A DNA stretch of 47,498 bases from NCBI GenBank assembly GCA_031403815.1, contig JANNGJ010000142.1, positions 1 to 47,498 on the forward strand. Reading direction: 5' to 3'. Origin of the DNA: Burkholderiales bacterium (GTDB taxonomy: Bacteria > Pseudomonadota > Gammaproteobacteria > Burkholderiales > Burkholderiaceae_C). Made by a program: the position numbers and the translations under genes. Positions 28,348 through 47,498 of the stretch are shown one piece after another; within the stretch, counting starts at the first letter, position 1, and every line of letters starts with the position of its first letter. The notes beneath the pieces were generated by a model, which made no database searches, had not been told where the DNA came from, and saw only the letters and a list, made by a program, of their open reading frames with translations.

Positions 28348-28947
28348 GTGATCCCGTCGCCCGCGCCGCGCGCCTGGGCCTTGTGCTCACTCGGCTTTGC
28401 CTTGGCCGCGCTGTTGCTCTGGACGGCGCCGCGCGACATGCTCGACTGGCAAGCGCCTCTGGCCATGGCACAAGCTTGGCGCTTCTGGACTGCGGCCTTC
28501 GTGCACTGGAGCGCGCAGCACCTGCTGGCCAACCTGCTGGGTTGCGCGGCGGTCGCTGCCTTCGGTGTCGCGGCCCAGGTGCCGCGCCATGTCACCTGGG
28601 CTTGGTTGGTCGCCTGGCCGCTGAGCCATGCCGCGCTCGCACTGGCGCCTCAGCTGCAGCACTACGGGGGCCTGTCGGGCGTGCTGCACGCAGGCGTCGC
28701 GGCGGCAGCTCTGCACCTGGTTTGGCGCGCCGCGGGTCGCCGACGCAGCATCGGCTGGGCCGTGCTGACAGGCTTGTCCATCAAGCTACTGCTCGAGCGC
28801 CCCTGGCAGGGGCCGACGCAATTCGTGCCGGGCTGGGATATTGCGCTGGCGCCGCTGGCGCATGTGACCGGCGCGGTCAGCGGGCTGCTTTGCGGCGCCG
28901 TTGCCCAGCTGGTCACCAGCCGCCGGACACAACGCGCGGTGGCCTGA
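28348..28947 (+). CDS. rhomboid-family intramembrane serine protease (size and layout like rhombosortase)
   Basis: ORF 28237..28947. A GTG at 28348 gives about 200 aa. It is multi-TM, with W(R)FWTAAFVHWS..HLL.N, GGLSGVLHAG (catalytic Ser context) and a later LAHVTGAVSG (His). The long version of the ORF overlaps the end of glnE. Confidence 0.6.
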   Translation: MIPSPAPRAWALCSLGFALAALLLWTAPRDMLDWQAPLAMAQAWRFWTAAFVHWSAQHLLANLLGCAAVAAFGVAAQVPRHVTWAWLVAWPLSHAALALAPQLQHYGGLSGVLHAGVAAAALHLVWRAAGRRRSIGWAVLTGLSIKLLLERPWQGPTQFVPGWDIALAPLAHVTGAVSGLLCGAVAQLVTSRRTQRAVA

Positions 28948-29047
28948 TGCCAACACGTCAGGGCACACTGTCGATGCGGCCGATTGAGGCCCTCGGCAGC
29001 GCCCCAACCAACCGGCGTCCCCTGCTCACTCACCGAAGGAAGCATCC

Positions 29048-29716
29048 ATGACCCTCATCCTTGGCGGCTTTGCGCTGTCGAACTATGTCAACAAGGTCAA
29101 GCTCGTTCTGCTCGAGAAGGGCCTGCCCTTCACGGAGGAGCGCGTGGCCCCGGGTCACAAGCCCGACGACCTGCTGGCCGCGTCCCCTCTGGGCAAAGTG
29201 CCCTTCTTGCGCACCGAGCACGGCACGCTGTGCGAGAGCAGCGCGATCGTCGACTACCTCGAGGCGCTGGCACCCAGCCCCGCACTGTTGCCGGCCAACC
29301 CTTGGGCTGCGGCCAAGGTGCGCGAACTGGCGGTGTTCATTGACCTGCACCTCGAACTGGTAGCGCGTGAGATCTACCCACAGGCCTTCTTCGGCGGCAG
29401 CATCAGTGACAGCCAGAAGGCGCGCGTGCGCAAGCTGCTCGACAAGAACATCCTGGGCTTCAAGCAACTGGCAAAGTTTTCACCGTATGTGGCGGGCGAC
29501 ATGTTCACGCAGGCTGATTGCGCGGCCTACGTCTCGCTGCCGCTGGTGGCCCTGGCGAGCAAAATCGTTTATGGCGAAGACTTGCTGGCTGCCGGCGGTG
29601 TCGAATGGAAAGCCTACTGCGCGCTGATTGCGCAGCGCCCATCGGCGCAACGCGTCGACGCCGATCGAAAAGCAGACCAGGCGCGCTCGATCACAGCGGC
29701 CAGGGCCAAAGACTAG
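29048..29716 (+). CDS. glutathione S-transferase family protein
   Basis: 222-aa ORF. The N-terminal thioredoxin-like part has ...SPLGKVPFL....G..L.ES.AI.DYLE, followed by a helical C-terminal domain. Confidence 0.85.
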   Translation: MTLILGGFALSNYVNKVKLVLLEKGLPFTEERVAPGHKPDDLLAASPLGKVPFLRTEHGTLCESSAIVDYLEALAPSPALLPANPWAAAKVRELAVFIDLHLELVAREIYPQAFFGGSISDSQKARVRKLLDKNILGFKQLAKFSPYVAGDMFTQADCAAYVSLPLVALASKIVYGEDLLAAGGVEWKAYCALIAQRPSAQRVDADRKADQARSITAARAKD

Positions 29717-30570
29717 CCTGGCTGCGGCGCCGCCGGCGGCGCGAGTGAACGCAGCAACTCTTTGCGGTAGCGGTTGAGCTCCTGCACGCTGGCAAAGCTG
29801 CGCTCCATCAACAGGCTCATGTTGTGCAGGATGCGCTCGACGACCCTGCCTTCCCATACCGAGTCGAACTGGATTTGCTTGTCCAGCCACTGTTCGAGCC
29901 ACGCGGGGTCGGGCAAGCGCGACTGGACGGTGTCGCGCGGAAACAGCTTGGCGTTCACATGCAGATTGGTCGGGTGGAGCGCCTGCGCAGTGCGACGGGC
30001 GCTGGCCATCAAAACGCCGACCTTGGCGAACGCCGCACGGGCTTCGTCACCGAAGCGGTGCATGGCCCGCTTCATGTAGCGCAGGTAGGCGCCGCCGTGG
30101 CGAGCCTCGTCGCGGGCCAGGGTCTCGTAGATCGCCTTGATGACGGGCTCGCTGTGCCACTCGGCGGCACGGCGGTACCAGTGGTTCAGCCGAATCTCGC
30201 CGCAGAAGTGCAGCATCAGGGTTTCCAGGGCCGGTGCGGGGTCGAACTCGAATCGCACCGCGTGCAGTTCTTCTTCGCTCGGGACCAGATCGGGTCGGAC
30301 GCGGCGCAGGTACTCCAGCAGCACGAGGGAGTGTTTTTGCTCCTCGAAGAACCAGACACTCATGAAGGCCGAGAAGTCGCTGTCGTCCTTGTTATCACGC
30401 AGGAACATCTCCGTCGCAGGCAGGGCTGCCCACTCCGTGATCGCATTCATTTTGATGGTCAGCGCCTGCTCCTCGGTCAGCTTCGCGGCGTCGAAACTGG
30501 CCCATGGAATGTCCTGCTCCATGTTCCAACGCACCGCCTCAAGTTGCCTGAAGAGTTCCGGGTAGAGCAT
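29713..30570 (-). CDS. ferritin-like di-iron protein, soluble acyl-ACP-desaturase-like
   Basis: ORF 29713..30636 trimmed to ATG 30570 (MLYPELF...). It has two E-x-x-H di-iron motifs in helices (WFFEEQKHSLVL and LARDEARHGGAY) plus NAITEW...E and GEIRLNHWY. It lies 62 nt downstream of the carH/litR-like gene on the same strand. Confidence 0.6.
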   Translation of the reverse strand: MLYPELFRQLEAVRWNMEQDIPWASFDAAKLTEEQALTIKMNAITEWAALPATEMFLRDNKDDSDFSAFMSVWFFEEQKHSLVLLEYLRRVRPDLVPSEEELHAVRFEFDPAPALETLMLHFCGEIRLNHWYRRAAEWHSEPVIKAIYETLARDEARHGGAYLRYMKRAMHRFGDEARAAFAKVGVLMASARRTAQALHPTNLHVNAKLFPRDTVQSRLPDPAWLEQWLDKQIQFDSVWEGRVVERILHNMSLLMERSFASVQELNRYRKELLRSLAPPAAPQPG

Positions 30571-30632
30571 CGCCTGTCCTTGGTGAGTGCGGCTGAATTC
30601 TAGAGAGTATCGAGAGGGCGGTCGGGCGCCAC

Positions 30633-31547
30633 TCACACCGGCTCGCGGTCGTGCCAGGCGGTCAGTGCGGCCGTGATGTCACTCAAGCCGGACAGTACCT
30701 GCACGCCCTCGATCGCTCGGCGCTGTAGTACCGGCGCGCTGCCCCCGACCCAGACTTCCACGTGCGCAGGCAATTTAGCGCGCAATTCGGTGAGGCCCTC
30801 AGTGACCTGGTGCGGGTTGGTGCATCCGGTGTAGCTGAGCGCCACCACTTCACTGCGCAGGGCCGCCGCGGCACGGATGATGTCCCACACCGGTGTCTGC
30901 ACGCCCAGAGACGCGCAGCGGCAACCCTCGAGCGCCAAAATGGCCTCGGCCATCAACAAGCCCAAGCCGTGCGGCTCGCCCGGCACGGTGCCCAACAGCA
31001 CACGGGGGCGGCCGACACCGGCAGCCGGCAAGTGGTGCAAGGCATTGCGCAACACGACTTGCACAGATTCGGTATAGAGGTGCTCTTCAAAAACTTCGAG
31101 GCGGCCCTGCATCCACGCCTCACCCACTTGTGCATTCAGGGGCGCGACCACGTCGAGGACGAATCGGCCCAGGCCCATGCGCGCGAGGGCTCGCGCCATC
31201 ATGTCGCGCAGCAGTTCTACGTCGTGAAGGCGAATCGTCGCCATGAAGCCGCCCAGGTCGGGCGCAGCGCGAGCTTGCGCCTCGGGCGGGCGCGTCGGCT
31301 CGCGCAAGCCGCTGGCGCTCGAAAGCAGCTCGAGGTCGCCGGGCGCCATGGCGACGATGCGGCCTGGCCTATGGCCGGCATCAAGCAGGCGCTTGATGGT
31401 GCGCAGGCGCTCGACCTGCTCAAATGGGTAGCTGCGTTCACCCATGGCATCACGGTCCGGCAGCGGAAACCCGTAGCGGCGCTCCCAAATGCGCAAGGTG
31501 TCTTTGCTCAGCCCCGTGTCGCGCTCGACAGCCGATATCGACATCAT
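30633..31547 (-). CDS. carH: MerR-family, cobalamin-binding light-responsive transcriptional regulator (CarH/LitR type)
   Basis: ORF 30633..31718 trimmed to ATG 31547/31544. It has a MerR HTH (MSISAVERDTGLSKDTLRIWERRYGFP...YPFEQVERLRTIKRL). It has the helical-bundle motif W-x9-E-H (WMQGRLEVFEEH). It has the B12-binding motif set E-x-H-x-x-G ... S-x-L ... G-G (GEPHGLG ... VALSYT ... VGGSA). Confidence 0.85.
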   Translation of the reverse strand: MMSISAVERDTGLSKDTLRIWERRYGFPLPDRDAMGERSYPFEQVERLRTIKRLLDAGHRPGRIVAMAPGDLELLSSASGLREPTRPPEAQARAAPDLGGFMATIRLHDVELLRDMMARALARMGLGRFVLDVVAPLNAQVGEAWMQGRLEVFEEHLYTESVQVVLRNALHHLPAAGVGRPRVLLGTVPGEPHGLGLLMAEAILALEGCRCASLGVQTPVWDIIRAAAALRSEVVALSYTGCTNPHQVTEGLTELRAKLPAHVEVWVGGSAPVLQRRAIEGVQVLSGLSDITAALTAWHDREPV

Positions 31548-31672
31548 GATCGGTCGTGCCGTGAAGCTAGTTTGCACCTGCATCCCCTTGGCTGAATCTT
31601 GCGTAGACGCCCGGTGCGTGTTCGCCACAGGCCGTGACAGTGTAGGTAGAAACGACGTTCTGTACTGGACAA

Positions 31673-31686
31673 ATGTTGTGCAACAT
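31673..31686. promoter_or_regulatory. inverted repeat ATGTTG-TG-CAACAT, candidate regulator binding site in the carH / lipid-operon spacer
   Basis: 6+6 perfect inverted repeat read directly from the sequence. It shares the TGTTG/CAACA half-site with the repeat at 31731-31749. Confidence 0.35.
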
Positions 31687-31730
31687 GGGGATCGCTCTGG
31701 ATTCTTCGCCTTGTCCATGGAGAAATCGAT

Positions 31731-31749
31731 GTGTTGACATAGACAACAC
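31731..31749. promoter_or_regulatory. inverted repeat GTGTTG-N7-CAACAC overlapping the -35 box, candidate operator
   Basis: gtgttgacatagacaacac has outer 6+6 arms perfectly complementary, and the TTGACA -35 hexamer lies inside it. Confidence 0.4.
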
Positions 31750-31762
31750 TGGGTGGTAATAT
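31734..31762 (+). promoter_or_regulatory. near-consensus sigma70 promoter (TTGACA - 17 nt - TAATAT, with TG extended -10)
   Basis: TTGACA at 31734-31739, a 17-nt spacer, and TAATAT at 31757-31762 preceded by TGg at 31754-31756. It sits in a locally AT-richer stretch. Confidence 0.7.
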
Positions 31763-31920
31763 TCTATACTCCTTGGTTTAAGTTTGGTTGAGCTGCCGCC
31801 GATGTCACACCTCGTTGCAATCCTGTTGGGGGAACTTCATGCAGTGGCGGAGCTCCATGCCAAGGTATGGTTTTGCTTGCTGAGCGGCCTGCCAGTTCGT
31901 CTGGCTGCAATCTCCGAGCG

Positions 31921-31950
31921 CTTTTCCTCCTCCTCCCTCCCTCCCTCCTT
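31921..31950 (+). repeat. pure polypyrimidine compound microsatellite (CCT)3(CCCT)3-like mirror repeat
   Basis: cttttcctcctcctccctccctccctcctt contains no purine over 30 nt. cctccctccctccctcc is mirror-symmetric. Confidence 0.9.
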
Positions 31951-31985
31951 CGCTCGGGGGCGCCGCACGGCAACCTTTACTGCCA

Positions 31986-32020
31986 GGGGTACCGCTTCGC
32001 GCGGTACCCCTTTGTTTTTT
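31986..32020 (+). terminator. rho-independent terminator
   Basis: ggggtaccgc-ttcgc-gcggtacccc forms a 10-bp GC-rich stem followed by tttgtttttt. It ends 12 nt before the ATG at 32033. Confidence 0.8.
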
Positions 32021-32032
32021 CCGCGCTGAGCC

Positions 32033-33337
32033 ATGCGCCGCGTCGCAGTCATTGGCTCTGGCATCTCCGGCCTGTCCGTCGCCCACGGTTTGGCAGATGC
32101 GGCTCGGGTCACGCTGTTCGAGGCGGCGTCCTGGTTTGGCGGACACGCCCACACGGTCGATGTTCGGCTTGAGGGCATCCGGCATGGCGTCGACACCGGC
32201 TTCCTGGTTTTCAACGAGCGCACCTACCCCCAGCTGATCTCCCTGTTCGAGCGCCTTGGCGTCGACAGCGCAGCCTCAGAGATGTCGTTCTCGGTGCAAT
32301 CCCCTGCCACGGGCTGGGAATGGTGCGGCAGCGACTTGAACGGTGTCTTCGCTCAACGCCGCAACCTGGTGTCGCGACGCTTTCTGGGCATGCTGCTCGA
32401 CGTGGTGCGCTTCAACCGGCTGGCCACCGCCATCGCCGTTGGCCGCGGTGATGCCGAGCTCGACCAGCCCATCGGCGAGTTCCTGGACCAACACGCCTTT
32501 GGCTCTGACTTCCGCGAGGGCTACTTCCTGCCCATGATCGGCTGCGTCTGGTCCTGCCCTATCGAGCAGATGCTGCGCTTTCCGATCGGCACGATGATCC
32601 GCTTCTGCCACAACCACGGCTTGATTCAGTTGAGCAACAGGCCGCAGTGGCGCACCGTTCGCGGCGGCTCGCGGGCCTATGTCGCGAAGATGTTGGCCAG
32701 CATCCCGGACGCGCGCTTGGCAAGCCCTGTCCGTTCTGTTCAGCGCCTGCCACCCGGTGACGGCACGGCAGGCGTTGTCGTCGCCACGGACACGGGCAGC
32801 GAGAGATTCGACGACGTGGTGCTGGCCTGCCACAGCGACCAGGCGCTGGCGCTGCTGCGGGATGCCGGCCCCGAAGAACAGGCGGTCCTCGGGGCCATCC
32901 GCTACCACGCCAACCGCGCGGTCTTGCACACCGACACCACAGCGCTGCCGCGGCGCCAGCGCGCCTGGGCCGCGTGGAACTATGAGCGCGCGCCAGACCG
33001 CAGCCACGAGCAGGCCGGCGTGTGCCTGCATTACCTGATCAACCGGCTGCAACCGCTGCCCTGGAAGACGCCGGTGATCGTCTCGCTCAACCCACTGCGA
33101 CCGATCCGCGCCGACGCCGTGATCGGCGAGTGGGACTACAGCCACCCGGTGTTCGACCGTGCCGCGGTGCGGGCGCAAGCCCAGGTCCCTGCAATGCAGG
33201 GCCGCTCGCATGTCTGGTACGCGGGTGCCTGGACACGCTACGGTTTTCACGAGGATGGCCTGATGTCGGGGCTGGCAGTGGTGGCAGGCTTGCGTGCGAG
33301 TTGGGCCTTGCAAGGGGCCCGCGGGGTGGCGGCGTGA
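32033..33337 (+). CDS. NAD(P)/FAD-dependent oxidoreductase, amine-oxidase / phytoene-desaturase-like
   Basis: 434-aa ORF. MRRVAVIGSGISGLSVAH is a dinucleotide-binding fold, with ...GGHAHT... and a C-terminal ...YAGAWTRYGFHEDGL.... It is the first gene of the coupled operon. Confidence 0.8.
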   Translation: MRRVAVIGSGISGLSVAHGLADAARVTLFEAASWFGGHAHTVDVRLEGIRHGVDTGFLVFNERTYPQLISLFERLGVDSAASEMSFSVQSPATGWEWCGSDLNGVFAQRRNLVSRRFLGMLLDVVRFNRLATAIAVGRGDAELDQPIGEFLDQHAFGSDFREGYFLPMIGCVWSCPIEQMLRFPIGTMIRFCHNHGLIQLSNRPQWRTVRGGSRAYVAKMLASIPDARLASPVRSVQRLPPGDGTAGVVVATDTGSERFDDVVLACHSDQALALLRDAGPEEQAVLGAIRYHANRAVLHTDTTALPRRQRAWAAWNYERAPDRSHEQAGVCLHYLINRLQPLPWKTPVIVSLNPLRPIRADAVIGEWDYSHPVFDRAAVRAQAQVPAMQGRSHVWYAGAWTRYGFHEDGLMSGLAVVAGLRASWALQGARGVAA

Positions 33338-34095
33338 ACCCTTCGCCTTCGAACGCGCAGCTGGCCATTGGGTCGGTGCGCCACCTTCGCCTGCGTCCAA
33401 CGAAGCACCGCTTCGACTACCCGACTTACTTTCTGCTGCTGCCCTTGCGTTCGATGCGCGCCTTGCCAAGCCCGGCGCTGGCGCGCAATCGCTTCGGCCT
33501 GCTGGCCTTCCACGACAGCGATCATGGCGACGGGCGCGACGACTGCCTGGCCTGGCTCGACGAGCAATTGCTGCGCGAAGGCGTTGTCGATGCGGATGGC
33601 GAGGTCTGGCTGCAAACCTACCCGCGGGTGCTCGGCTACGCCTTCAAGCCTGTGAGCTTTTGGTACTGCCACCGCCGCGACGGCAGCCTGGCCGCCATCG
33701 TCACAGAGGTGAACAACACCTTCGGCGAGCGCCATTGCTACCTGCTGGTCGGCCCGGCCCTGGCCTGGGGCCAGGAACAACGGGCGCAGAAGGTCTTTCA
33801 CGTCTCGCCCTTCTGCCACATTGTTGGTGAGTACCGCTTCCGTTTTGCGCGCAGCCAAGGCCGCATCGTTGCGCGCATCGAGCACCACGACGCTGATGGT
33901 CCCTTGCTGCTGACCAGCGTCAGCGGTGCATTCGCCGCGGCTACACCCGCACGTCAACGTGCGGCCTTCTTTGGCCAGCCGCTGATGACCATCGGCGTGA
34001 TCCTGCGCATCCACTGGCAAGCGCTTCAGTTGTGGCTCAAGCGCGTGCCCTTCGTGCGCAAGCCCATCGCACCCGATCACTTCGTCACCCGCTGA
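33334..34095 (+). CDS. DUF1365 family protein
   Basis: In-frame part of ORF 33022..34095 from GTG 33334, which overlaps the upstream TGA (GTGA). It has ...VRHLRLRPTKHRFDYPTYFLLLPL...AFHDSDHG...FKPVSFWYC...VTEVNNTFGERHCY.... Confidence 0.75.
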   Translation: MNPSPSNAQLAIGSVRHLRLRPTKHRFDYPTYFLLLPLRSMRALPSPALARNRFGLLAFHDSDHGDGRDDCLAWLDEQLLREGVVDADGEVWLQTYPRVLGYAFKPVSFWYCHRRDGSLAAIVTEVNNTFGERHCYLLVGPALAWGQEQRAQKVFHVSPFCHIVGEYRFRFARSQGRIVARIEHHDADGPLLLTSVSGAFAAATPARQRAAFFGQPLMTIGVILRIHWQALQLWLKRVPFVRKPIAPDHFVTR

Positions 34096-34126
34096 AATTC
34101 GCAGCCCCATTCACTTCCGCAGTCCG

Positions 34127-35365
34127 ATGAACACGCCCGCCTCCAGTCTGTCCTCGCACGCGCCGGTGCGCCTCCCCCCAACCGCACCGGCGGCAGCTCG
34201 CGCCGTGCTGCGCTTGCTGTCAAGCCTGCGCCATGGGCGCCTCGATCTGCAATTGCCCGACGGCTCGCAGTCGCGCTTCGGCGATCCTCAGGCGGCTGGG
34301 CCGCATGCGGCGATCCGCCTGTTGAACTGGAACGTGTGCGCTGCGGCGCTGAAGTCGGGTGACATCGGCTTTGCCGAGAGCTACATCGCCGGGGACTGGA
34401 CCACGCCCGACCTGGCGGCGCTGATGAAGCTCTTTGTCGCCAACCGGGACGCGGTCGAGCATGTCATCTATGGCCAATGGTGGGGCCGGCTGCTGTACCG
34501 CGCCAAGCACCTGCTGAACCGCAACTCGCGCCGCGGCAGCCGCAAGAACATCCACGCCCACTATGACCTGGGCAATCCCTTCTACCGCCTCTGGCTCGAC
34601 CCGACGATGAACTACTCGAGCGCCTGGTTCGAGGGCGACCTGCAACGCAGCCTGCCCGCGGCCCAGCACGCCAAGGTCAGGCGCGCACTGCAGGAGTGCG
34701 GACTGCAACCCGGCCAACGCCTGCTCGAGATTGGCTGTGGCTGGGGCGCTCTGGCCGAGAAGGCGGCTGCGGAGTTCGCGGCCGAGGTCACGGGGGTGAC
34801 CTTGTCCAAGGAGCAACTGGGCTTTGCCCAGCAGCGCATCGAGCAGGCCGGCTTGTCGGAACGCGTGGCCTTGCGCCTGCAGGATTACCGCGACATCGAC
34901 GACGCCGCCTTCGACGCCATCGCCTCCATCGAAATGTTCGAGGCCGTGGGCCGCGAGTACTGGCCGGGCTTCTTCGCCACCCTGCGCGACAAGCTCAAGC
35001 CCGGCGGACGCGCCTGTATCCAGACCATCACGATCCGCGACGACCTGTTTGAGCGCTACGTCGCCGGTACCGATTTCATCCAGCAGTACATCTTCCCCGG
35101 TGGCCTGCTGCCCAGCCCGAGCCAATTCCGGGCCCATGCGCAGGCCGCGGGCCTCGAAGTCGTCAACGAGCTGGCCTTCGGCCCAGACTACGCCGAGACC
35201 CTGCGGCGCTGGCGTGAGCGTTTCCTGGCCGAAGAGTCGCAAGTTCGACGTATCGGCTTTGACACGCGATTCATGCGCATCTGGGAGTTCTATCTGGCTT
35301 ACTGCGAGGCCGCCTTCGACGGCGGCAACACCGATGTCATCCAGTTCACGCTGCGCAAGCCCTGA
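34127..35365 (+). CDS. cyclopropane-fatty-acyl-phospholipid synthase family SAM-dependent methyltransferase
   Basis: 412-aa ORF with ...HYDLGNPFYRLWLDPTMNYSSAWF..., SAM motif LLEIGCGWGALA, and ...SIEMFEAVG..YW..FF......L.PGG....Q.I.I. Confidence 0.88.
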   Translation: MNTPASSLSSHAPVRLPPTAPAAARAVLRLLSSLRHGRLDLQLPDGSQSRFGDPQAAGPHAAIRLLNWNVCAAALKSGDIGFAESYIAGDWTTPDLAALMKLFVANRDAVEHVIYGQWWGRLLYRAKHLLNRNSRRGSRKNIHAHYDLGNPFYRLWLDPTMNYSSAWFEGDLQRSLPAAQHAKVRRALQECGLQPGQRLLEIGCGWGALAEKAAAEFAAEVTGVTLSKEQLGFAQQRIEQAGLSERVALRLQDYRDIDDAAFDAIASIEMFEAVGREYWPGFFATLRDKLKPGGRACIQTITIRDDLFERYVAGTDFIQQYIFPGGLLPSPSQFRAHAQAAGLEVVNELAFGPDYAETLRRWRERFLAEESQVRRIGFDTRFMRIWEFYLAYCEAAFDGGNTDVIQFTLRKP

Positions 35366-35930
35366 CCCGGCCTCTCGCCGTCGCGCGCTGGTGGCCCTGG
35401 CCGCCTTCGCGACGGCCTGGCCTGTGGCGGCCCAGCCCAGCCCAGGTGTGGGCATGCCGGTGCCAGGTGAGGTTCTGGGCGATCTGCCGGGCGCCCGCCT
35501 GCAGGGCCAGGCGCGCCTGCGCTTTTTCGGCCTGCATGTGTATGACATCCGCCTGTGGGCGCCTGTGCTGCTCAGCACGGACGACGCATTGCGCAGGACA
35601 GCCGCACTGGAAATCGAGTACGCACGAGCGCTCAAGGGCTTGCAGATTGCCGACCGCTCACTGAGTGAGATGCGACGGGTCGCCGACTTCGAGGCCGCCG
35701 AAGGCGAGCGCTGGTTGGCGCGCATGCAGCAGCTATTTCCGGATGTCCAGGCCGGTGATCGCATCACCTTCGTCCACCGACCCGGTGAAGGTGGGCGCTT
35801 TCATGTCAACGGCCGGCTCGTTGGCGAGGTTCGCGACGCTGTATTCGCGCGCCTGTTCATCGGCATCTGGCTGTCGCCCCGCACCTCGGAGCCTCAGCTT
35901 CGCAGCGCCTTGCTCGGGTCGCCGCCGTGA
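35334..35930 (+). CDS. chalcone-isomerase-like family exported protein
   Basis: C-terminal part of ORF 34824..35930. The signal peptide RRRALVALAAFATAWPVAAQ is followed by ...RLRFFGLHVYDIRLWAP... typical of CHI-like (Chalcone_3) proteins. The ATG at 35334 overlaps the preceding gene by 32 nt, so the start is uncertain. Confidence 0.6.
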   Translation: MSSSSRCASPDPASRRRALVALAAFATAWPVAAQPSPGVGMPVPGEVLGDLPGARLQGQARLRFFGLHVYDIRLWAPVLLSTDDALRRTAALEIEYARALKGLQIADRSLSEMRRVADFEAAEGERWLARMQQLFPDVQAGDRITFVHRPGEGGRFHVNGRLVGEVRDAVFARLFIGIWLSPRTSEPQLRSALLGSPP

Positions 35931-37213
35931 GCGACGTAGCGCCGATCACGGCGCCCGCCGCAGCGGTCAGCGTGCGCAACGGGGTCACCTACGGCGCCCT
36001 TGGCTTTCCCTTGGCCTTCGTCGCCCTGCCGCTGTACGTGATCTTGCCGAACCACTACGCTACGGTCTTCGGCGTGCCCCTGGCCATGCTCGGCGTTTTG
36101 CTGCTGGCCACGCGCCTGCTGGACGCCTTTGCCGACCCATGGATCGGCCGCTGGACCGACACCTGGTTCGCGCATTCCACGCGCCGCGTGCTGGTGATCG
36201 GGGCCGCCGCTGCGGTCGTGTTGTCCTTCGGATTTCACGCCCTGTTCTTTCCCCGGGTCAGCGAGCCCACCGCATTGCTCATCTGGTGCGGCGCCTTTCT
36301 GGCCCTGACCTACCTTGCCTACAGCGTCCTGTCTGTCGTGCACCAGGCCTGGGGCGCACGCCTGGGGGGCGACGCGACACAGCGTGCCCGCATCGTTGCC
36401 TGGCGTGAAGGCCTGGCCTTGGCCGGCGTGCTGGTGGCCAGTGTGTTGCCGTCACTGGCGGGCCTGGGGCCGACCAGTGCCACGTTCGCCGTGGCACTGG
36501 TGCTCGGTGTGAGCCTGCTGACCATTGCGCCGCGCAATGCGGACGTGCGCACCAGCCGCCTTGCGCCGTCAATGCGTTTGCCGCTGGCCAATCCGGGCTT
36601 TCGGCGCTTGCTCTTGGTCTTCATGGTCAATGGCGTGGCCAGCGCCGTGCCGGCCACCCTGGTGCTGTTCTTCATCCGTGACCGCCTGCAATTGCCGGCC
36701 TATGAGCCCCTGTTCCTGTTCAGCTACTTTGCTGCTGGCGCGCTGTCGATGCCGCTGTGGGTTCGGGCCGTGGCGCACTTCGGTCTGGCGCGCTCCTGGC
36801 TGGCCGGCATGCTGCTCGCGATCGCGAGCTTTGTCGGCGCAGCTTCGCTGGGCGCCGGTGACCTGGTTGCATTCACCGTGATCTGCGTGGCCAGTGGCCT
36901 GGCGCTGGGCGCGGACCTGGCCCTGCCCGGCGCGCTGCTGGCCGGCGTGATCCAGCGCAGCGGGCACAGTGGCCACGCCGAAGGTGCCTACTTTGGCTGG
37001 TGGAACTTCGCCACCAAGCTCAATCTGGCGCTGGCAGCGGGTCTGTCGCTGCCACTGCTCAGCGCGTTTGGCTACACGCCCGGCGCGCGCGATGCCGGCG
37101 CCTTGCAGGCGCTGGCGCTGGCGTATGGCTTGCTACCCTGCGCACTCAAGCTGTTCGCGGCAGCTTTGCTATACGGCGCTTGGATGCGCCACCCTGTTGG
37201 AGACTCGACGTGA
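35927..37213 (+). CDS. MFS transporter
   Basis: 428-aa polytopic ORF with about 12 hydrophobic segments. The GTG start overlaps the upstream TGA (GTGA). Confidence 0.8.
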   Translation: MSDVAPITAPAAAVSVRNGVTYGALGFPLAFVALPLYVILPNHYATVFGVPLAMLGVLLLATRLLDAFADPWIGRWTDTWFAHSTRRVLVIGAAAAVVLSFGFHALFFPRVSEPTALLIWCGAFLALTYLAYSVLSVVHQAWGARLGGDATQRARIVAWREGLALAGVLVASVLPSLAGLGPTSATFAVALVLGVSLLTIAPRNADVRTSRLAPSMRLPLANPGFRRLLLVFMVNGVASAVPATLVLFFIRDRLQLPAYEPLFLFSYFAAGALSMPLWVRAVAHFGLARSWLAGMLLAIASFVGAASLGAGDLVAFTVICVASGLALGADLALPGALLAGVIQRSGHSGHAEGAYFGWWNFATKLNLALAAGLSLPLLSAFGYTPGARDAGALQALALAYGLLPCALKLFAAALLYGAWMRHPVGDST

Positions 37214-37773
37214 CATCCCTCGCCCCCACTGCACCCCTGGCCCGCCGCGGCGCGGCCATGCTTCTGGCTGCAACCGCCCTCGTACTGGCCGGCTGTGCCA
37301 GCGCGCCGACGCCGGCCGACTACGCGCGGGAGACGCCGCAGCTTGAGTTGCGCAAGTACTTCAACGGCCCCCTCACCGCGCACGGCATCTTCACCGACCG
37401 CTCTGGCAAAGTATTGCGCCGCTTCAGCGTCAGGATGACGGGCACCTGGAATGGCAACCAGGGCGTGCTGGACGAAGACTTCACCTACAGCGACGGTAAG
37501 AAGGAACGCCGTGTCTGGCGCCTTACCGATCTTGGCAATGGCCGTTACAGCGGCCGCGCCGACGACGTCGTCGGCGAAGCCGTCGGGCAGGCGGCCGGCA
37601 ACGCCTTGAACTGGCGCTACACACTGGCCCTGCCGGTCGACGGCCGCGTCTGGGAGGTGCAGTTCGACGACTGGATGTACCTGATGGATGAGCGCGTGAT
37701 GCTCAACAAGGCCGTGATGAGCAAGTTCGGCATCACCCTGGGCGAAGTCACGCTTGCCTTCACCAAACCTTGA
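37210..37773 (+). CDS. DUF3833 family lipoprotein (lipocalin-like)
   Basis: In-frame part of ORF 37000..37773 from GTG 37210 (GTGA overlap). It has the lipobox LVLAGC, then ...RKYFNGPLTAHGIFTDRSGKVLRRFSV...FDDWMYLMDERVMLNKAVMSKFGI.... Confidence 0.65.
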   Translation: MTSLAPTAPLARRGAAMLLAATALVLAGCASAPTPADYARETPQLELRKYFNGPLTAHGIFTDRSGKVLRRFSVRMTGTWNGNQGVLDEDFTYSDGKKERRVWRLTDLGNGRYSGRADDVVGEAVGQAAGNALNWRYTLALPVDGRVWEVQFDDWMYLMDERVMLNKAVMSKFGITLGEVTLAFTKP

Positions 37774-37784
37774 GTGGACTGCCA

Positions 37785-38570
37785 ATGCCTTTGAATCCGC
37801 GCATCACCCGCTGGGCCGACCAGGTGGTCTGGCTGGTGGGCGCTTCCACCGGCATTGGCCGCGCGACGGCCGAGCAGTTGCACGCCGCCGGCGCGATCGT
37901 GATTGCGTCGGCCCGTGACGCTGCCAAGCTGAGCCAGTTCACACAGGGCCGCGCGCGCGCATTTGCATTGCCTTTGGATGTCACTGACCGCGCAGCGCAA
38001 AGGGACGCCGCCGCCGCCATCGTCGCGCAGCATGGCCGCATCGACCTGGTGATGTACTGCGCCGGACACTACAAAGCCCAGCGTGCGACCGCTTTCGATC
38101 TGGACGAGATGCTCAGGCACCAACAGGTCAATGTCGTCGGTGCGCTCTATCTGCTCGACGCCGTGCTGCCGCAGATGCAAGGCCAGGCGGCTGCCGGCAA
38201 GCCCGCGCACATCAGCCTGGTGGCCAGCGTGGCCGGTTACCGCGGCCTGCCGAATTCGCTGGCCTACGGCCCGACCAAAGCCGCGCTGATCAATCTGGCC
38301 GAGACCCTCTATCTGGACCTCCAGCCGCAGGGCCTGGGGGTGTCGGTGATTAATCCGGGCTTCGTCGAAACCCCGTTGACGGCCGGCAACAAGTTCAGCA
38401 TGCCCGCCTTGATGACGCCCGCCGACGCGGCGCGCGAGATCGTGGCGGGGTGGGAAGCGGGCCGCTTCGAGATCCACTTCCCGAAGCGCTTCACACTGTG
38501 GCTCAAGGCCATGCGCTTTCTTGGCGATGGCGCCTACTTCGCGGCCATCCGCCGCTCCACCGGGTTATGA
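37785..38570 (+). CDS. short-chain dehydrogenase/reductase (SDR) family oxidoreductase
   Basis: ORF 37770..38570. It has VWLVGASTGIGRA (TGxxxGxG), ...SVAGYRGLPNSLAYGPTKAA (YxxxK), and ...VINPGFVETP. The start is ATG 37785, or TTG 37770 overlapping the upstream stop. Confidence 0.85.
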   Translation: MPLNPRITRWADQVVWLVGASTGIGRATAEQLHAAGAIVIASARDAAKLSQFTQGRARAFALPLDVTDRAAQRDAAAAIVAQHGRIDLVMYCAGHYKAQRATAFDLDEMLRHQQVNVVGALYLLDAVLPQMQGQAAAGKPAHISLVASVAGYRGLPNSLAYGPTKAALINLAETLYLDLQPQGLGVSVINPGFVETPLTAGNKFSMPALMTPADAAREIVAGWEAGRFEIHFPKRFTLWLKAMRFLGDGAYFAAIRRSTGL

Positions 38571-39013
38571 CCGGGGCACGCTCAGCCGACGCGCGGGTGC
38601 AGCGGGCGGTGATCTTCTTTGAGCAACTGAGTCCGGCGGACCTGCCGCGGCTGGGCGAGCTTTACGCTACCGACGCACGCTTCAAGGACCCGTTCAACGA
38701 CGTGGCTGGCGTACCCGCCATCACGGCCGTCTTCGAGCACATGTACCGCACGCTGAAGTCGCCCCGTTTCGTAGTGCTCGACATCGTTGCCAGCGGCGAC
38801 GACTGCTTCCTGACCTGGGACTTCCTGTTTCGCTTCAAGCGCTTTTCGCCGCAACTTGACCAGCGTGTGCGGGGCGCAACCCAGCTGCGCTTTGGCGCCA
38901 ACGGCCAGATCACCCTGCACCGCGACTACTGGGACGCGGCCGAGGAGTTGTACGAGAAGCTGCCCGCGATCGGACCGTTCATGCGCTGGCTCAAGCGCCG
39001 CGCGAACGCCTGA
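38567..39013 (+). CDS. nuclear transport factor 2 (SnoaL-like) family protein
   Basis: ORF 38450..39013 trimmed to ATG 38567 (ATGA overlap with the SDR stop). It has ...LGELYATDARFKDPFNDV.G...I..VF.HM......F...D......D..FL.W.F.F.... Confidence 0.65.
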   Translation: MTGARSADARVQRAVIFFEQLSPADLPRLGELYATDARFKDPFNDVAGVPAITAVFEHMYRTLKSPRFVVLDIVASGDDCFLTWDFLFRFKRFSPQLDQRVRGATQLRFGANGQITLHRDYWDAAEELYEKLPAIGPFMRWLKRRANA

Positions 39014-44735: not shown

Positions 44736-45293
<558 letters not shown>

Positions 45294-45387
45294 AACCAGT
45301 TCGGCAAGTGGGTCGGTGCGGCCGAAGCCGAGCTTGAAGGCTTTGCCCACGACCTGCGCGAGATGCGCATCGACAAAGAGCGCTGAC

Positions 45388-47498
<2,111 letters not shown>

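Follow-up and report, generated by a model that had tools for sequence, protein, structure and literature searches.

The DNA analysed here, 47,498 nucleotides (nt) from contig JANNGJ010000142.1 (positions 1 to 47,498; assembly GCA_031403815.1, from a Burkholderiales bacterium), is referred to in its full length as the window. It includes a gene for a LitR/CarH-type MerR regulator (litR), a co-oriented gene for a soluble di-iron protein and, divergently oriented, an operon of eight genes headed by a UfaD-like desaturase gene (ufaD below). In our view the locus is probably a photo-oxidative-stress membrane-lipid module of a Rubrivivax/Aquincola-like betaproteobacterium from fresh water or soil. 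The gene block is conserved between genomes, the regulator carries the signature of adenosylcobalamin (AdoB12) photoreceptors, the di-iron gene is linked to the cluster and a covarying leader RNA lies downstream of a consensus for sigmaE-type promoters.

A conserved cluster with a B12-type LitR gene

The genes of the cluster are as follows (aa, amino acids; values are those of the Pfam matches):
29713..30570, minus strand: soluble di-iron carboxylate protein (285 aa), distantly related to acyl-acyl carrier protein (acyl-ACP) desaturases
30633..31583, minus strand: LitR/CarH-type MerR regulator, 316 aa, with MerR_1, B12-binding_2 and B12-binding domains and a complete AdoB12-binding signature (class I type)
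32033..33337, plus strand: UfaD-like FAD desaturase of the amine-oxidase/phytoene-desaturase fold, 434 aa (Amino_oxidase, 5e-15; NAD_binding_8)
33334..34095, plus strand: DUF1365 protein, UfaO-like, 253 aa (DUF1365, 2.8e-76)
34127..35365, plus strand: S-adenosylmethionine (SAM)-dependent methyltransferase of the cyclopropane fatty acid (CFA) synthase family, 412 aa (CMAS, 1.5e-87)
35334..35930, plus strand: exported chalcone-isomerase (CHI)-like protein, resembling fatty-acid-binding proteins (Chalcone_3, 3.9e-12)
35927..37213, plus strand: MFS_2 (GPH-family) transporter (MFS_2, 1.7e-43)
37210..37773, plus strand: DUF3833 lipoprotein, 187 aa, with an LAGC lipobox in the translation (DUF3833, 1.1e-71)
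37770..38570, plus strand: short-chain dehydrogenase/reductase (SDR), 266 aa, counterpart of RSP1087 (adh_short, 3.9e-38)
38567..39013, plus strand: SnoaL/NTF2-like protein, last gene of the operon, its position conserved across loci (SnoaL_2, 4.5e-15)

An earlier note on this DNA, drawn up from the letters alone, had assigned domains to the regulator, the di-iron protein and the eight operon products. In Pfam and NCBIfam scans of the window open reading frames (ORFs) all ten match the predicted Pfam families. The translational chaining that it described is likewise present, with GTGA overlaps at 33334 (with the ufaD-like gene), 35927 and 37210, an ATGA overlap at 38567 and a 32-nt overlap at 35334; the junction at 37770 is a TTGA overlap. 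The gap of 62 nt reported between litR and the di-iron gene holds with the di-iron start at ATG 30570, and the two genes are probably co-transcribed across it.

To place the locus in a wider context, genomes were surveyed at one per species and gene neighbours were identified by tblastn. All 80 loci returned are from Burkholderiales (Rubrivivax, Aquincola, Rhizobacter, Methylibium, Polaromonas, Variovorax and many metagenome-assembled genomes). The ufaD-like gene is divergent from litR in 73 of them, in several genera, and on all contigs of sufficient length the eight genes of the window recur in unchanged order. This survey backs the earlier proposal of a variant of the lipid module associated with a B12-type LitR. 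Two positions are found for the di-iron gene. In the first arrangement, which is that of the window, it comes immediately after litR (48 loci); in the second arrangement it is a ninth operon gene after snoaL on the operon strand (20 loci). It thus switches transcription unit yet stays in the cluster, which is good evidence from gene order that it belongs to the system. No other protein of the cluster is as conserved as its product (76–93% identity, compared with 53–76% for LitR and 29–75% for SnoaL).

Loci of the second arrangement carry a photolyase-related DPRP gene (CryB/PhrB-type) right after litR and on the same strand (L027:10908-12449, L046:11054-12634, L073:11295-12818 and L079:11079-12659). 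Many loci have a glutathione peroxidase gene (gpx), oriented like the operon, in the interval from litR to ufaD; some also include folE2, which encodes a GTP cyclohydrolase I of type 2 (such operon heads are found at L042:8343-9852, L077:8428-9240, L120:5420-6019 and others). The window itself has neither gpx nor folE2. Photolyase-related, gpx and folE2 neighbours fit a light and photo-oxidative-stress regulon.

The regulator ORF at 30633-31718 on the minus strand matches MerR_1 (2.1e-15), B12-binding_2 (2e-6) and B12-binding (2e-10), and the His of the cobalamin motif is retained in an alignment of 22 homologues. The start proposed earlier, 31547, is less likely than 31583, which gives a protein of 316 aa as in most homologues. 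The cap motif W157-x9-E167-H168 is unchanged across the 22 homologues and the B12 motif E203-P-H205-G-L-G208-x41-S250-Y-T252-x27-G280-G281 is invariant. The signature set listed in the earlier note is therefore present as regards the MerR, Wx9EH, ExHxxG and GG elements, while its 'S-x-L' is really S-Y-T, which agrees with the SxV/T of the CarH motif (PMC8156234). Wx9EH and ExHx2Gx41SxV/Tx22-27GG, the latter including the lower axial His, jointly define AdoB12-dependent photoreceptors homologous to CarH (PMC8156234). The alignment of LitR with Thermus thermophilus CarH (5C8D, 3WHP; E 1e-23) spans the entire protein: W157..E167-H168 corresponds to GEAW…EEHL of 5C8D, and the MerR domain to residues 12-73 of Thermus CarH. 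LitR scores 111.7 bits against the NCBIfam CarH equivalog NF052513, whose cut-off is 400, and is on this scale a relative of the curated CarH family and not an equivalog. Close LitR homologues in metagenomes number thousands.

LitR has the MerR DNA-binding domain of class I CarH (Thermus, Myxococcus, Bacillus) and a B12 module in which both Wx9EH and ExHxxG are present. Class I proteins form AdoB12-dependent tetramers in the dark, which come apart in light and leave the DNA. Their known targets are for the most part carotenoid genes (PMC9758184), whereas here lipid genes adjoin and no carotenoid genes are nearby. The types of target gene are instead shared with class II LitR of Pseudomonas, namely photolyase-related, folE and ufaM-type lipid genes: phrB, ufaM, folE and cryB belong to regulons of the LitR family in Pseudomonas, and genes of these types are reported to be induced by light via class II LitR in Pseudomonas putida (PMC9758184). 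Class II LitR is independent of B12, the light signal coming from a partner LOV protein, and class III LitR (Burkholderia) lacks the B12 domain and may perceive light by other means (PMC9758184). This diversity, together with the occurrence of B12-binding domains in proteins that are not photoreceptors, would leave room for a LitR that senses B12 availability or redox at a locus unrelated to light. We regard this as very improbable, since both photoreceptor-defining motifs, Wx9EH and ExHxxG…SxT…GG (PMC8156234), are invariant here and since a photolyase-related gene directly follows litR in the same orientation in related loci.

Putative lipid-modifying genes and the di-iron protein

The operon is close in organisation to RSP1091-RSP1087 of Rhodobacter sphaeroides, which is divergent from rpoE-chrR (PMC3546557). 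In that operon UfaD (RSP1091, 430 aa) is an FAD amine-oxidase-like enzyme that desaturates 11Me-12t-18:1 (PMC7380195, PMC5507510, PMC3546557), and UfaO (RSP1090), a DUF1365 protein of 250 aa, closes the furan ring with O2 (PMC7380195). They are accompanied by RSP1089 (402 aa), the lipoprotein RSP1088 (186 aa) and the SDR RSP1087 (245 aa) (PMC7380195, PMC5507510). The domain order is the same in both operons (FAD amine-oxidase-like, DUF1365, CFA-synthase family, lipoprotein, SDR), and so, nearly, are the sizes (434/253/412/187/266 aa here and 430/250/402/186/245 aa there). The likeness to RSP1091 rests on domains, position and size, and by position and size the DUF3833 lipoprotein is the counterpart of RSP1088. 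Both operons are divergent from a stress regulator and have an ECF-type (extracytoplasmic function sigma factor) promoter ahead of them. The gene order thus supports the kinship, suggested in the earlier note, with the light and singlet-oxygen lipid module of sigmaE-ChrR and LitR regulons. The domain calls of that note for the module also stand, although it overlooked that DUF1365 is the furan-forming UfaO and the amine-oxidase-like enzyme the desaturase UfaD (PMC7380195). In contrast to Rhodobacter, a B12-type LitR takes the place of rpoE-chrR, the ECF-like promoter is of the GGAACTT-N16-TCnnA (AlgU/RpoE) type, genes for the CHI-like protein and MFS_2 are inserted, snoaL is appended, a di-iron gene is attached and a structured leader RNA is present.

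The remaining enzyme of the known pathway is UfaM, a SAM-dependent vaccenate 11-methylase of the CFA-synthase family (PMC7380195). The CMAS gene of the window is plausibly UfaM-like by analogy, because the gene in the same position is UfaM in Rhodopseudomonas palustris and the best UfaM match in Pseudomonas syringae. In R. palustris the adjacent UfaD, UfaO and UfaM genes (RPA2571-2569) suffice for furan fatty acid synthesis (PMC7380195); in P. syringae a cfa gene beside a DUF1365 gene is the best match to UfaM (PMC5507510).

The compounds of the known pathway are 11Me-12t-18:1, 11Me-10t,12t-18:2 and the furan fatty acid 9M5-FuFA. We lean, with some reserve, towards a furan fatty acid as the product here. 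Another lipid (cyclopropane, methyl-branched or conjugated-diene), or the repair or removal of oxidised acyl chains, with the di-iron protein as the key oxygenase, is unlikely by comparison. In its favour, the CMAS protein falls below the cut-off of every NCBIfam equivalog, and its sequence would fit a UfaM-like enzyme, an RSP1089-like enzyme or a true CFA synthase. Rhodobacter makes furan fatty acids without RSP1087-1089 (PMC7380195), and the CHI-like protein, MFS_2, DUF3833, SDR, SnoaL and di-iron proteins have no role in the known pathway. A distant homologue of the di-iron protein, P0294, is also paired with CMAS in an ACP-based cluster that has neither UfaD nor UfaO. Against these points stands the adjacency of UfaD-like, DUF1365 and CMAS genes in the order of RPA2571-2569, three genes which are sufficient in R. 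palustris (PMC7380195).

Among the genes additional to the pathway, that for the CHI-like protein encodes an N-terminal signal-like segment (SRRRALVALAAFA). The nature of the CHI-like, DUF3833 and MFS_2 products suggests that they may handle lipids across the envelope.

The di-iron protein had been described in the earlier note as acyl-ACP-desaturase-like. This is appropriate in the sense of a distant kinship, seen in profile and structure comparisons; its Pfam match is partial, and it is not a regular member of PF03405. The ORF at 29713-30636 on the minus strand matches FA_desaturase_2 (6e-8) in residues 156-206 only, corresponding to profile positions 174-224 of 325, and has weak matches to AurF and rubrerythrin. 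A profile of the family finds DesA2 (8e-6) and the ivy and castor acyl-ACP desaturases (2e-5 to 6e-4) in the PDB, over positions 38-184 only. Its putative ligands E47, E78xxH81, E126 and E156xxH159 are at least 90% conserved, even in relatives of 26–45% identity. An AlphaFold2 model (pLDDT 85, pTM 0.86) was compared with the PDB using Foldseek: ranks 1-17 are all acyl-ACP desaturases (TM score 0.51–0.60, E 3e-4 to 4e-3), followed by R2-like ligand-binding oxidases (R2lox) and aldehyde-deformylating oxygenases, families which also bind or act on long acyl chains. With acyl-ACP desaturases (PF03405; castor delta-9, ivy delta-4, Mycobacterium tuberculosis DesA2) the protein shares the six-ligand motif and the fold of the whole chain, whereas identity is only 13–18% and its length about 285 aa compared with 330–360 aa. 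It forms a narrow and very highly conserved family of its own: a search of 1.84 billion proteins gave 460 representatives at E <=1e-3, largely fragments belonging to a single cluster. Any specific role for it can be assigned only tentatively.

Distant homologues are found in other surroundings. P0294 (37% identity) is part of a cluster (L201:6766-12947; also L202 and L203) with the order ACP, FA_desaturase_2 paralogue, P0294, CMAS methyltransferase, acyl-AMP ligase and ketosynthase, which looks like a dedicated ACP-based fatty-acid tailoring pathway. Soluble acyl-ACP desaturases work on acyl-ACP with ferredoxin, and the ACP in this cluster is a contextual hint that the di-iron family may use such substrates. 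The contexts of P0256, P0292, P0296, P0375, P0352 and P0360, on short or unrelated contigs, are uninformative. On its other side, the di-iron gene of the window meets a glutathione S-transferase (GST) gene (29048-29716, plus strand), which converges on it with a 4-nt overlap of the 3′ ends. This GST neighbour stays behind the di-iron gene in most loci of the first arrangement and also in the deletion variant L142 described below.

A structured RNA and promoter motifs in the control region

The region between litR and ufaD was called an AT-richer spacer in the earlier note. It is indeed richer in AT (56% GC in 31584-32032 compared with 67% for the window), whereas the term spacer does not do it justice: promoters, operator-like repeats and a structured RNA are included within it. 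The elements of the RNA, all on the plus strand, are:
31877..31973: conserved structured RNA core with three helices (RNAalifold on 44 sequences; covariance model)
31877-31887 with 31963-31973: P1, the closing helix, 11 base pairs (bp)
31889-31895 with 31901-31907: P2, a variable hairpin
31911-31919 with 31952-31960: P3, 9 bp
31920-31951: invariant CU-rich loop on P3, 30–32 nt, including CCUCCUCCUCCCUCCCUCCCUCC
31985..32020: intrinsic-terminator-like hairpin, 11 bp and a U-tract, ending 13 nt before the ufaD ATG

Conservation of the helices is by pairing. In the structure above 93% of cells are paired and 22 of the 27 pairs show compensatory changes; compensatory cells number 179, compared with 55 in column shuffles, and none of 500 shuffles reaches 179. 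Controls in which the partner strand was slid fall to 35–46% pairing. The loop is an invariant pyrimidine run in the RNAalifold consensus (UUCUCCUCCUCCUCCCUCCCUCCCUCGUU); in the window it contains CCTCCTCCTCCCTCCCTCCCTCC and exposes the anti-Shine-Dalgarno-like motif CCUCCUCCC.

The covariance model scores 132.9 bits in the window (31851-31992) and finds one copy each in 49 of 81 sequences, always just upstream of ufaD and on the operon strand; it has no match in loci of the second arrangement. A metagenome scan with the exact loop pattern gave 80 loci, of which 76 fit the model at high score (four are cut by contig ends). In 46 of these metagenome loci ufaD directly follows the RNA, and in most the di-iron gene is divergent upstream. 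Folded singly, the window RNA forms the same helices and the strong terminator at 31985-32020. Such a terminator is found at 18 of 63 distinct RNA-ufaD junctions, where its stems covary; at the remaining junctions the RNA leads straight into the ribosome-binding region of ufaD, in many cases a G-rich or GGAGG-rich stretch.

Several loci carry the RNA in reduced surroundings. In L142 (1700-2900) and L107, both from metagenomes, the order is CorA, RNA with terminator, di-iron gene and GST: litR has been lost along with the entire lipid operon, of which only a 16-codon ufaD remnant is left. L001 (9089-9749) is the genome locus whose LitR is most similar to that of the window (76% identity); here the RNA precedes a SnoaL-like gene only, the other seven operon genes being missing between CorA and litR. 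Because these loci keep the RNA without the full operon, it is, as far as gene order tells, a leader and in places a free-standing gene. In L155 (10600-13347), and also in L094, L118 and L148, the RNA is solitary, lacks a downstream ufaD and has GST convergent on it; the di-iron gene is divergent at about 830 nt from the RNA, and no Pfam-recognisable ORF lies between.

Known RNA families offer no direct match. Rfam 15 at the gathering threshold gave nothing relevant for the whole window and seven related loci, and at E <=5 nothing relevant, including ar14, for 31540-32060. A G-rich complement of the CU loop is found nowhere else in the window, and a literature search found the loop sequence in no paper with a bacterial context. 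The closest parallel is with the CcsR or cuckoo RNAs of alphaproteobacteria, each a series of 2–4 tandem hairpins that carry CCUCCUCCC in their loops. Photo-oxidative stress induces CcsR1-4 through an RpoHI/HII promoter, and these RNAs make the cells more resistant to organic peroxide (PMC4615179, PMC8034643). An anti-Shine-Dalgarno-like hairpin loop, a promoter of a stress-sigma type and an association with photo-oxidative stress are common to both. In contrast to the tandem hairpins, the RNA described here has one 30-nt loop in a three-helix junction, is betaproteobacterial and is fixed upstream of ufaD beside the di-iron gene, with no DUF1127 partner seen. Given this different architecture, the likeness is one of working principle and not of family membership.

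It is scarcely plausible that 31877-31973 is instead part of a small protein gene (ORF 31802-32029, 75 aa) or an element acting at the DNA level. An ORF does cover the region, and in the closest loci, L002 and L003, there is some amino-acid-like similarity in its 5′ part. The conservation is nevertheless that of paired helices, with the compensatory changes and slid-partner controls given above; the most conserved stretch is a pyrimidine run, which in at least one locus (L050, by eye) shifts to another reading frame, and the matches are strand-specific, always on the operon strand. The ORFs 31784/31802-32029 and 31867-32172 have no Pfam match and were rejected as small genes because the compensatory base-pair changes favour an RNA.

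Promoter-like and operator-like motifs were compared in the 74 intergenic regions of the genome loci, with expectations taken from shuffles. Those of the window are:
31659..31673: type-1 operator-like palindrome TTTGTCC-W-GGACAAA (15 bp), copy nearest litR (comparative motif)
31733..31747: degenerate second copy of type 1, over the -35 box
31734..31762, plus strand: sigma70-like promoter, TTGACA-17-TAATAT with a TG extension, facing the operon (10/12 positions)
31748..31777: type-2 operator-like double dyad ACYNNNNRGT-N9/10-ACYNNNNRGT, bracketing the -10 box TAATAT
31831..31858, plus strand: sigmaE/AlgU-type (ECF) promoter-like element GGAACTT-N16-TCCAT, with a predicted RNA start near 31865

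For the sigmaE-type element, the pattern GAACYN-N16-TC has 41 matches in 39 of the 74 regions (5.6 expected), 37 of these regions having it 194–330 nt upstream of the ufaD ATG and 34 within 194–266 nt. It is found in 75 of 119 RNA-bearing loci compared with 1.6 expected, and positions that were not part of the search are conserved as well, the G before GAAC in 75/75 and the A of TCnnA in 62/75. GGAACT(T/C)-N16-TC..A corresponds to the consensus for RpoE/AlgU-type ECF sigma factors. The strict TCnnA pattern has no match in the window because the -10 box there reads TCCAT. The search that gave the sigma70-like promoter of the window found 2 sites, compared with 0.4 expected.

Type 1 has 128 matches compared with 15 in shuffles, and its copies are mostly paired, 63 bp apart and near the litR start, with unconserved flanks. 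Among metagenome loci it occurs in 15 of 23 with LitR and in none of 34 without. No further convincing site of this type is found elsewhere in the window. Type 2 has 52 matches in 48 of the 74 loci (0.35 in shuffles), its 9-nt spacer often resembling a -10 box. With gpx between litR and ufaD, type 1 remains beside litR and type 2 beside ufaD. Class I CarH operators consist of three or four tandem 11-bp direct repeats that overlap the promoter, whereas here a 15-bp palindrome and a double dyad are the candidates. The core TnnACA of CarH half-sites is present in type 1; type 2, compared with the class II LitR site T(G/A)TACA-N12-TGTA(C/T)A, reads TGTACA in some loci. Type 2 hints at another regulator or at an unusual LitR operator.

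The rest of the window is housekeeping chromosome (transketolase, PGK, DprA, SecDF, YhdP, GlnE, GST, CorA, HprK, BamE, DapB), and the ORFs scanned include no photolyase, ECF sigma factor or B12 gene. The ORFs 28383-29051, 45039-45677 and 45753-47318 (222, 212 and 521 aa) have no Pfam match and may be spurious high-GC ORFs or uncharacterised genes.

Proposed mechanism and significance

In the dark, AdoB12-bound LitR would oligomerise on palindromes of the shared control region and repress litR with the di-iron gene as well as the divergent sigma70-type promoter of the operon. Light would cleave the Co-C bond and release LitR from the DNA, turning on both transcription units; in the second arrangement the unit released would be litR with the cryB-like gene. 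The promoter for an RpoE/AlgU-type ECF sigma factor would add an envelope or oxidative-stress input and transcribe the leader RNA, whose anti-Shine-Dalgarno-like CU loop may tune ufaD in cis by pairing with G-rich stretches of the ribosome-binding site or the terminator. Terminated transcripts and solitary copies of the RNA may act in trans. As to the enzymes, CMAS would methylate, the UfaD-like protein desaturate and the DUF1365/UfaO-like protein oxygenate phospholipid-bound vaccenate, giving furan-type fatty acids able to scavenge singlet oxygen. The di-iron enzyme may add or supply an O2-dependent acyl desaturation or oxygenation, and the CHI-like protein, DUF3833 lipoprotein and MFS_2 would move modified or damaged lipids across the envelope.

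A number of observations on the regulatory side weigh against this scheme. Some loci keep the operon, RNA and di-iron gene without an adjacent litR, and type 2 occurs in metagenome loci only where ufaD is present, including loci that lack an adjacent litR. The two type-1 copies of the window are degenerate (2 mismatches at 31659-31673 and 3 at 31733-31747) and not significant alone. The tandem 11-bp CarH repeats nAnnTnnACAn were not found by eye in the spacer, no pattern scan being run. Type 1 and type 2 are both candidates for the LitR operator, and this is the chief weakness of the view that LitR acts directly on the eight-gene operon. The most conserved promoter ahead of the operon is the sigmaE/AlgU-type and not the sigma70-like one. 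Finally, the terminator and ribosome-binding-site platforms that follow the RNA would lead to opposite predicted outcomes under a single pairing model.

Some of these points could also mean that the operon belongs to a sigmaE regulon only, LitR controlling its own unit (litR with the di-iron or cryB-like gene) and the divergent arrangement reflecting shared ancestry. The sigmaE-type promoter is the one most consistently placed ahead of ufaD, the type-1 palindrome adjoins litR and remains there when gpx intervenes, type 2 is at the ufaD promoter also where no litR is adjacent, and loci of the L120 type keep gpx, RNA and ufaD without an adjacent litR. We nevertheless judge this quite unlikely. 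The divergent pairing of litR and operon is kept across genera in 73 of 80 genomes, second-arrangement loci that lack the RNA and the sigmaE motif keep litR beside the operon, LitR homologues of Pseudomonas control these same gene types (PMC9758184), and the sigma70-type promoter of the window, overlapped by motifs of both types, faces the operon.

The enzymatic core is already known, as is lipid remodelling controlled by light or singlet oxygen. The pairing of a class-I-type B12 LitR with the lipid module is undescribed in the literature searched and lies outside curated models, and the same applies to the di-iron family linked to it, the additional genes for carriers and a transporter, the architecture of the operators and, above all, the leader RNA, an embedded motif which may represent a new family. 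The literature search found no bacterial paper on CarH together with cyclopropane or on DUF1365 together with MerR. That the RNA is a new class of riboregulator and, at the same time, the di-iron protein a new acyl-modifying enzyme under a B12 photoreceptor is possible, and in our estimation doubtful. If so, a sigmaE-driven RNA of roughly 100–160 nt would, through its invariant loop, make lipid remodelling respond to stress of the envelope and to photo-oxidative stress. It would act on ufaD in cis and also in trans, as an independently arisen betaproteobacterial functional analogue of the CcsR RNAs, and its constant companion, the ultra-conserved di-iron protein, would be a new O2-dependent fatty-acyl enzyme that extends or feeds the furan fatty acid pathway.

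In membranes, furan fatty acids scavenge singlet oxygen, and to our knowledge their bacterial pathway is known only from two alphaproteobacteria, under sigmaE-ChrR. The same enzymatic core is found here beside a B12-based photoreceptor in a large and environmentally abundant group of Burkholderiales; metagenomic homologues of both LitR and the di-iron protein number thousands. The cluster offers candidates for a lipid-modifying di-iron enzyme, for periplasmic lipid carriers with a transporter and for a covarying RNA motif without Rfam match. The operator candidates are architecturally unlike the Thermus/Bacillus paradigm, and control of this operon by LitR would widen the targets of class I CarH/LitR regulators from carotenoid synthesis to membrane fatty-acid chemistry.

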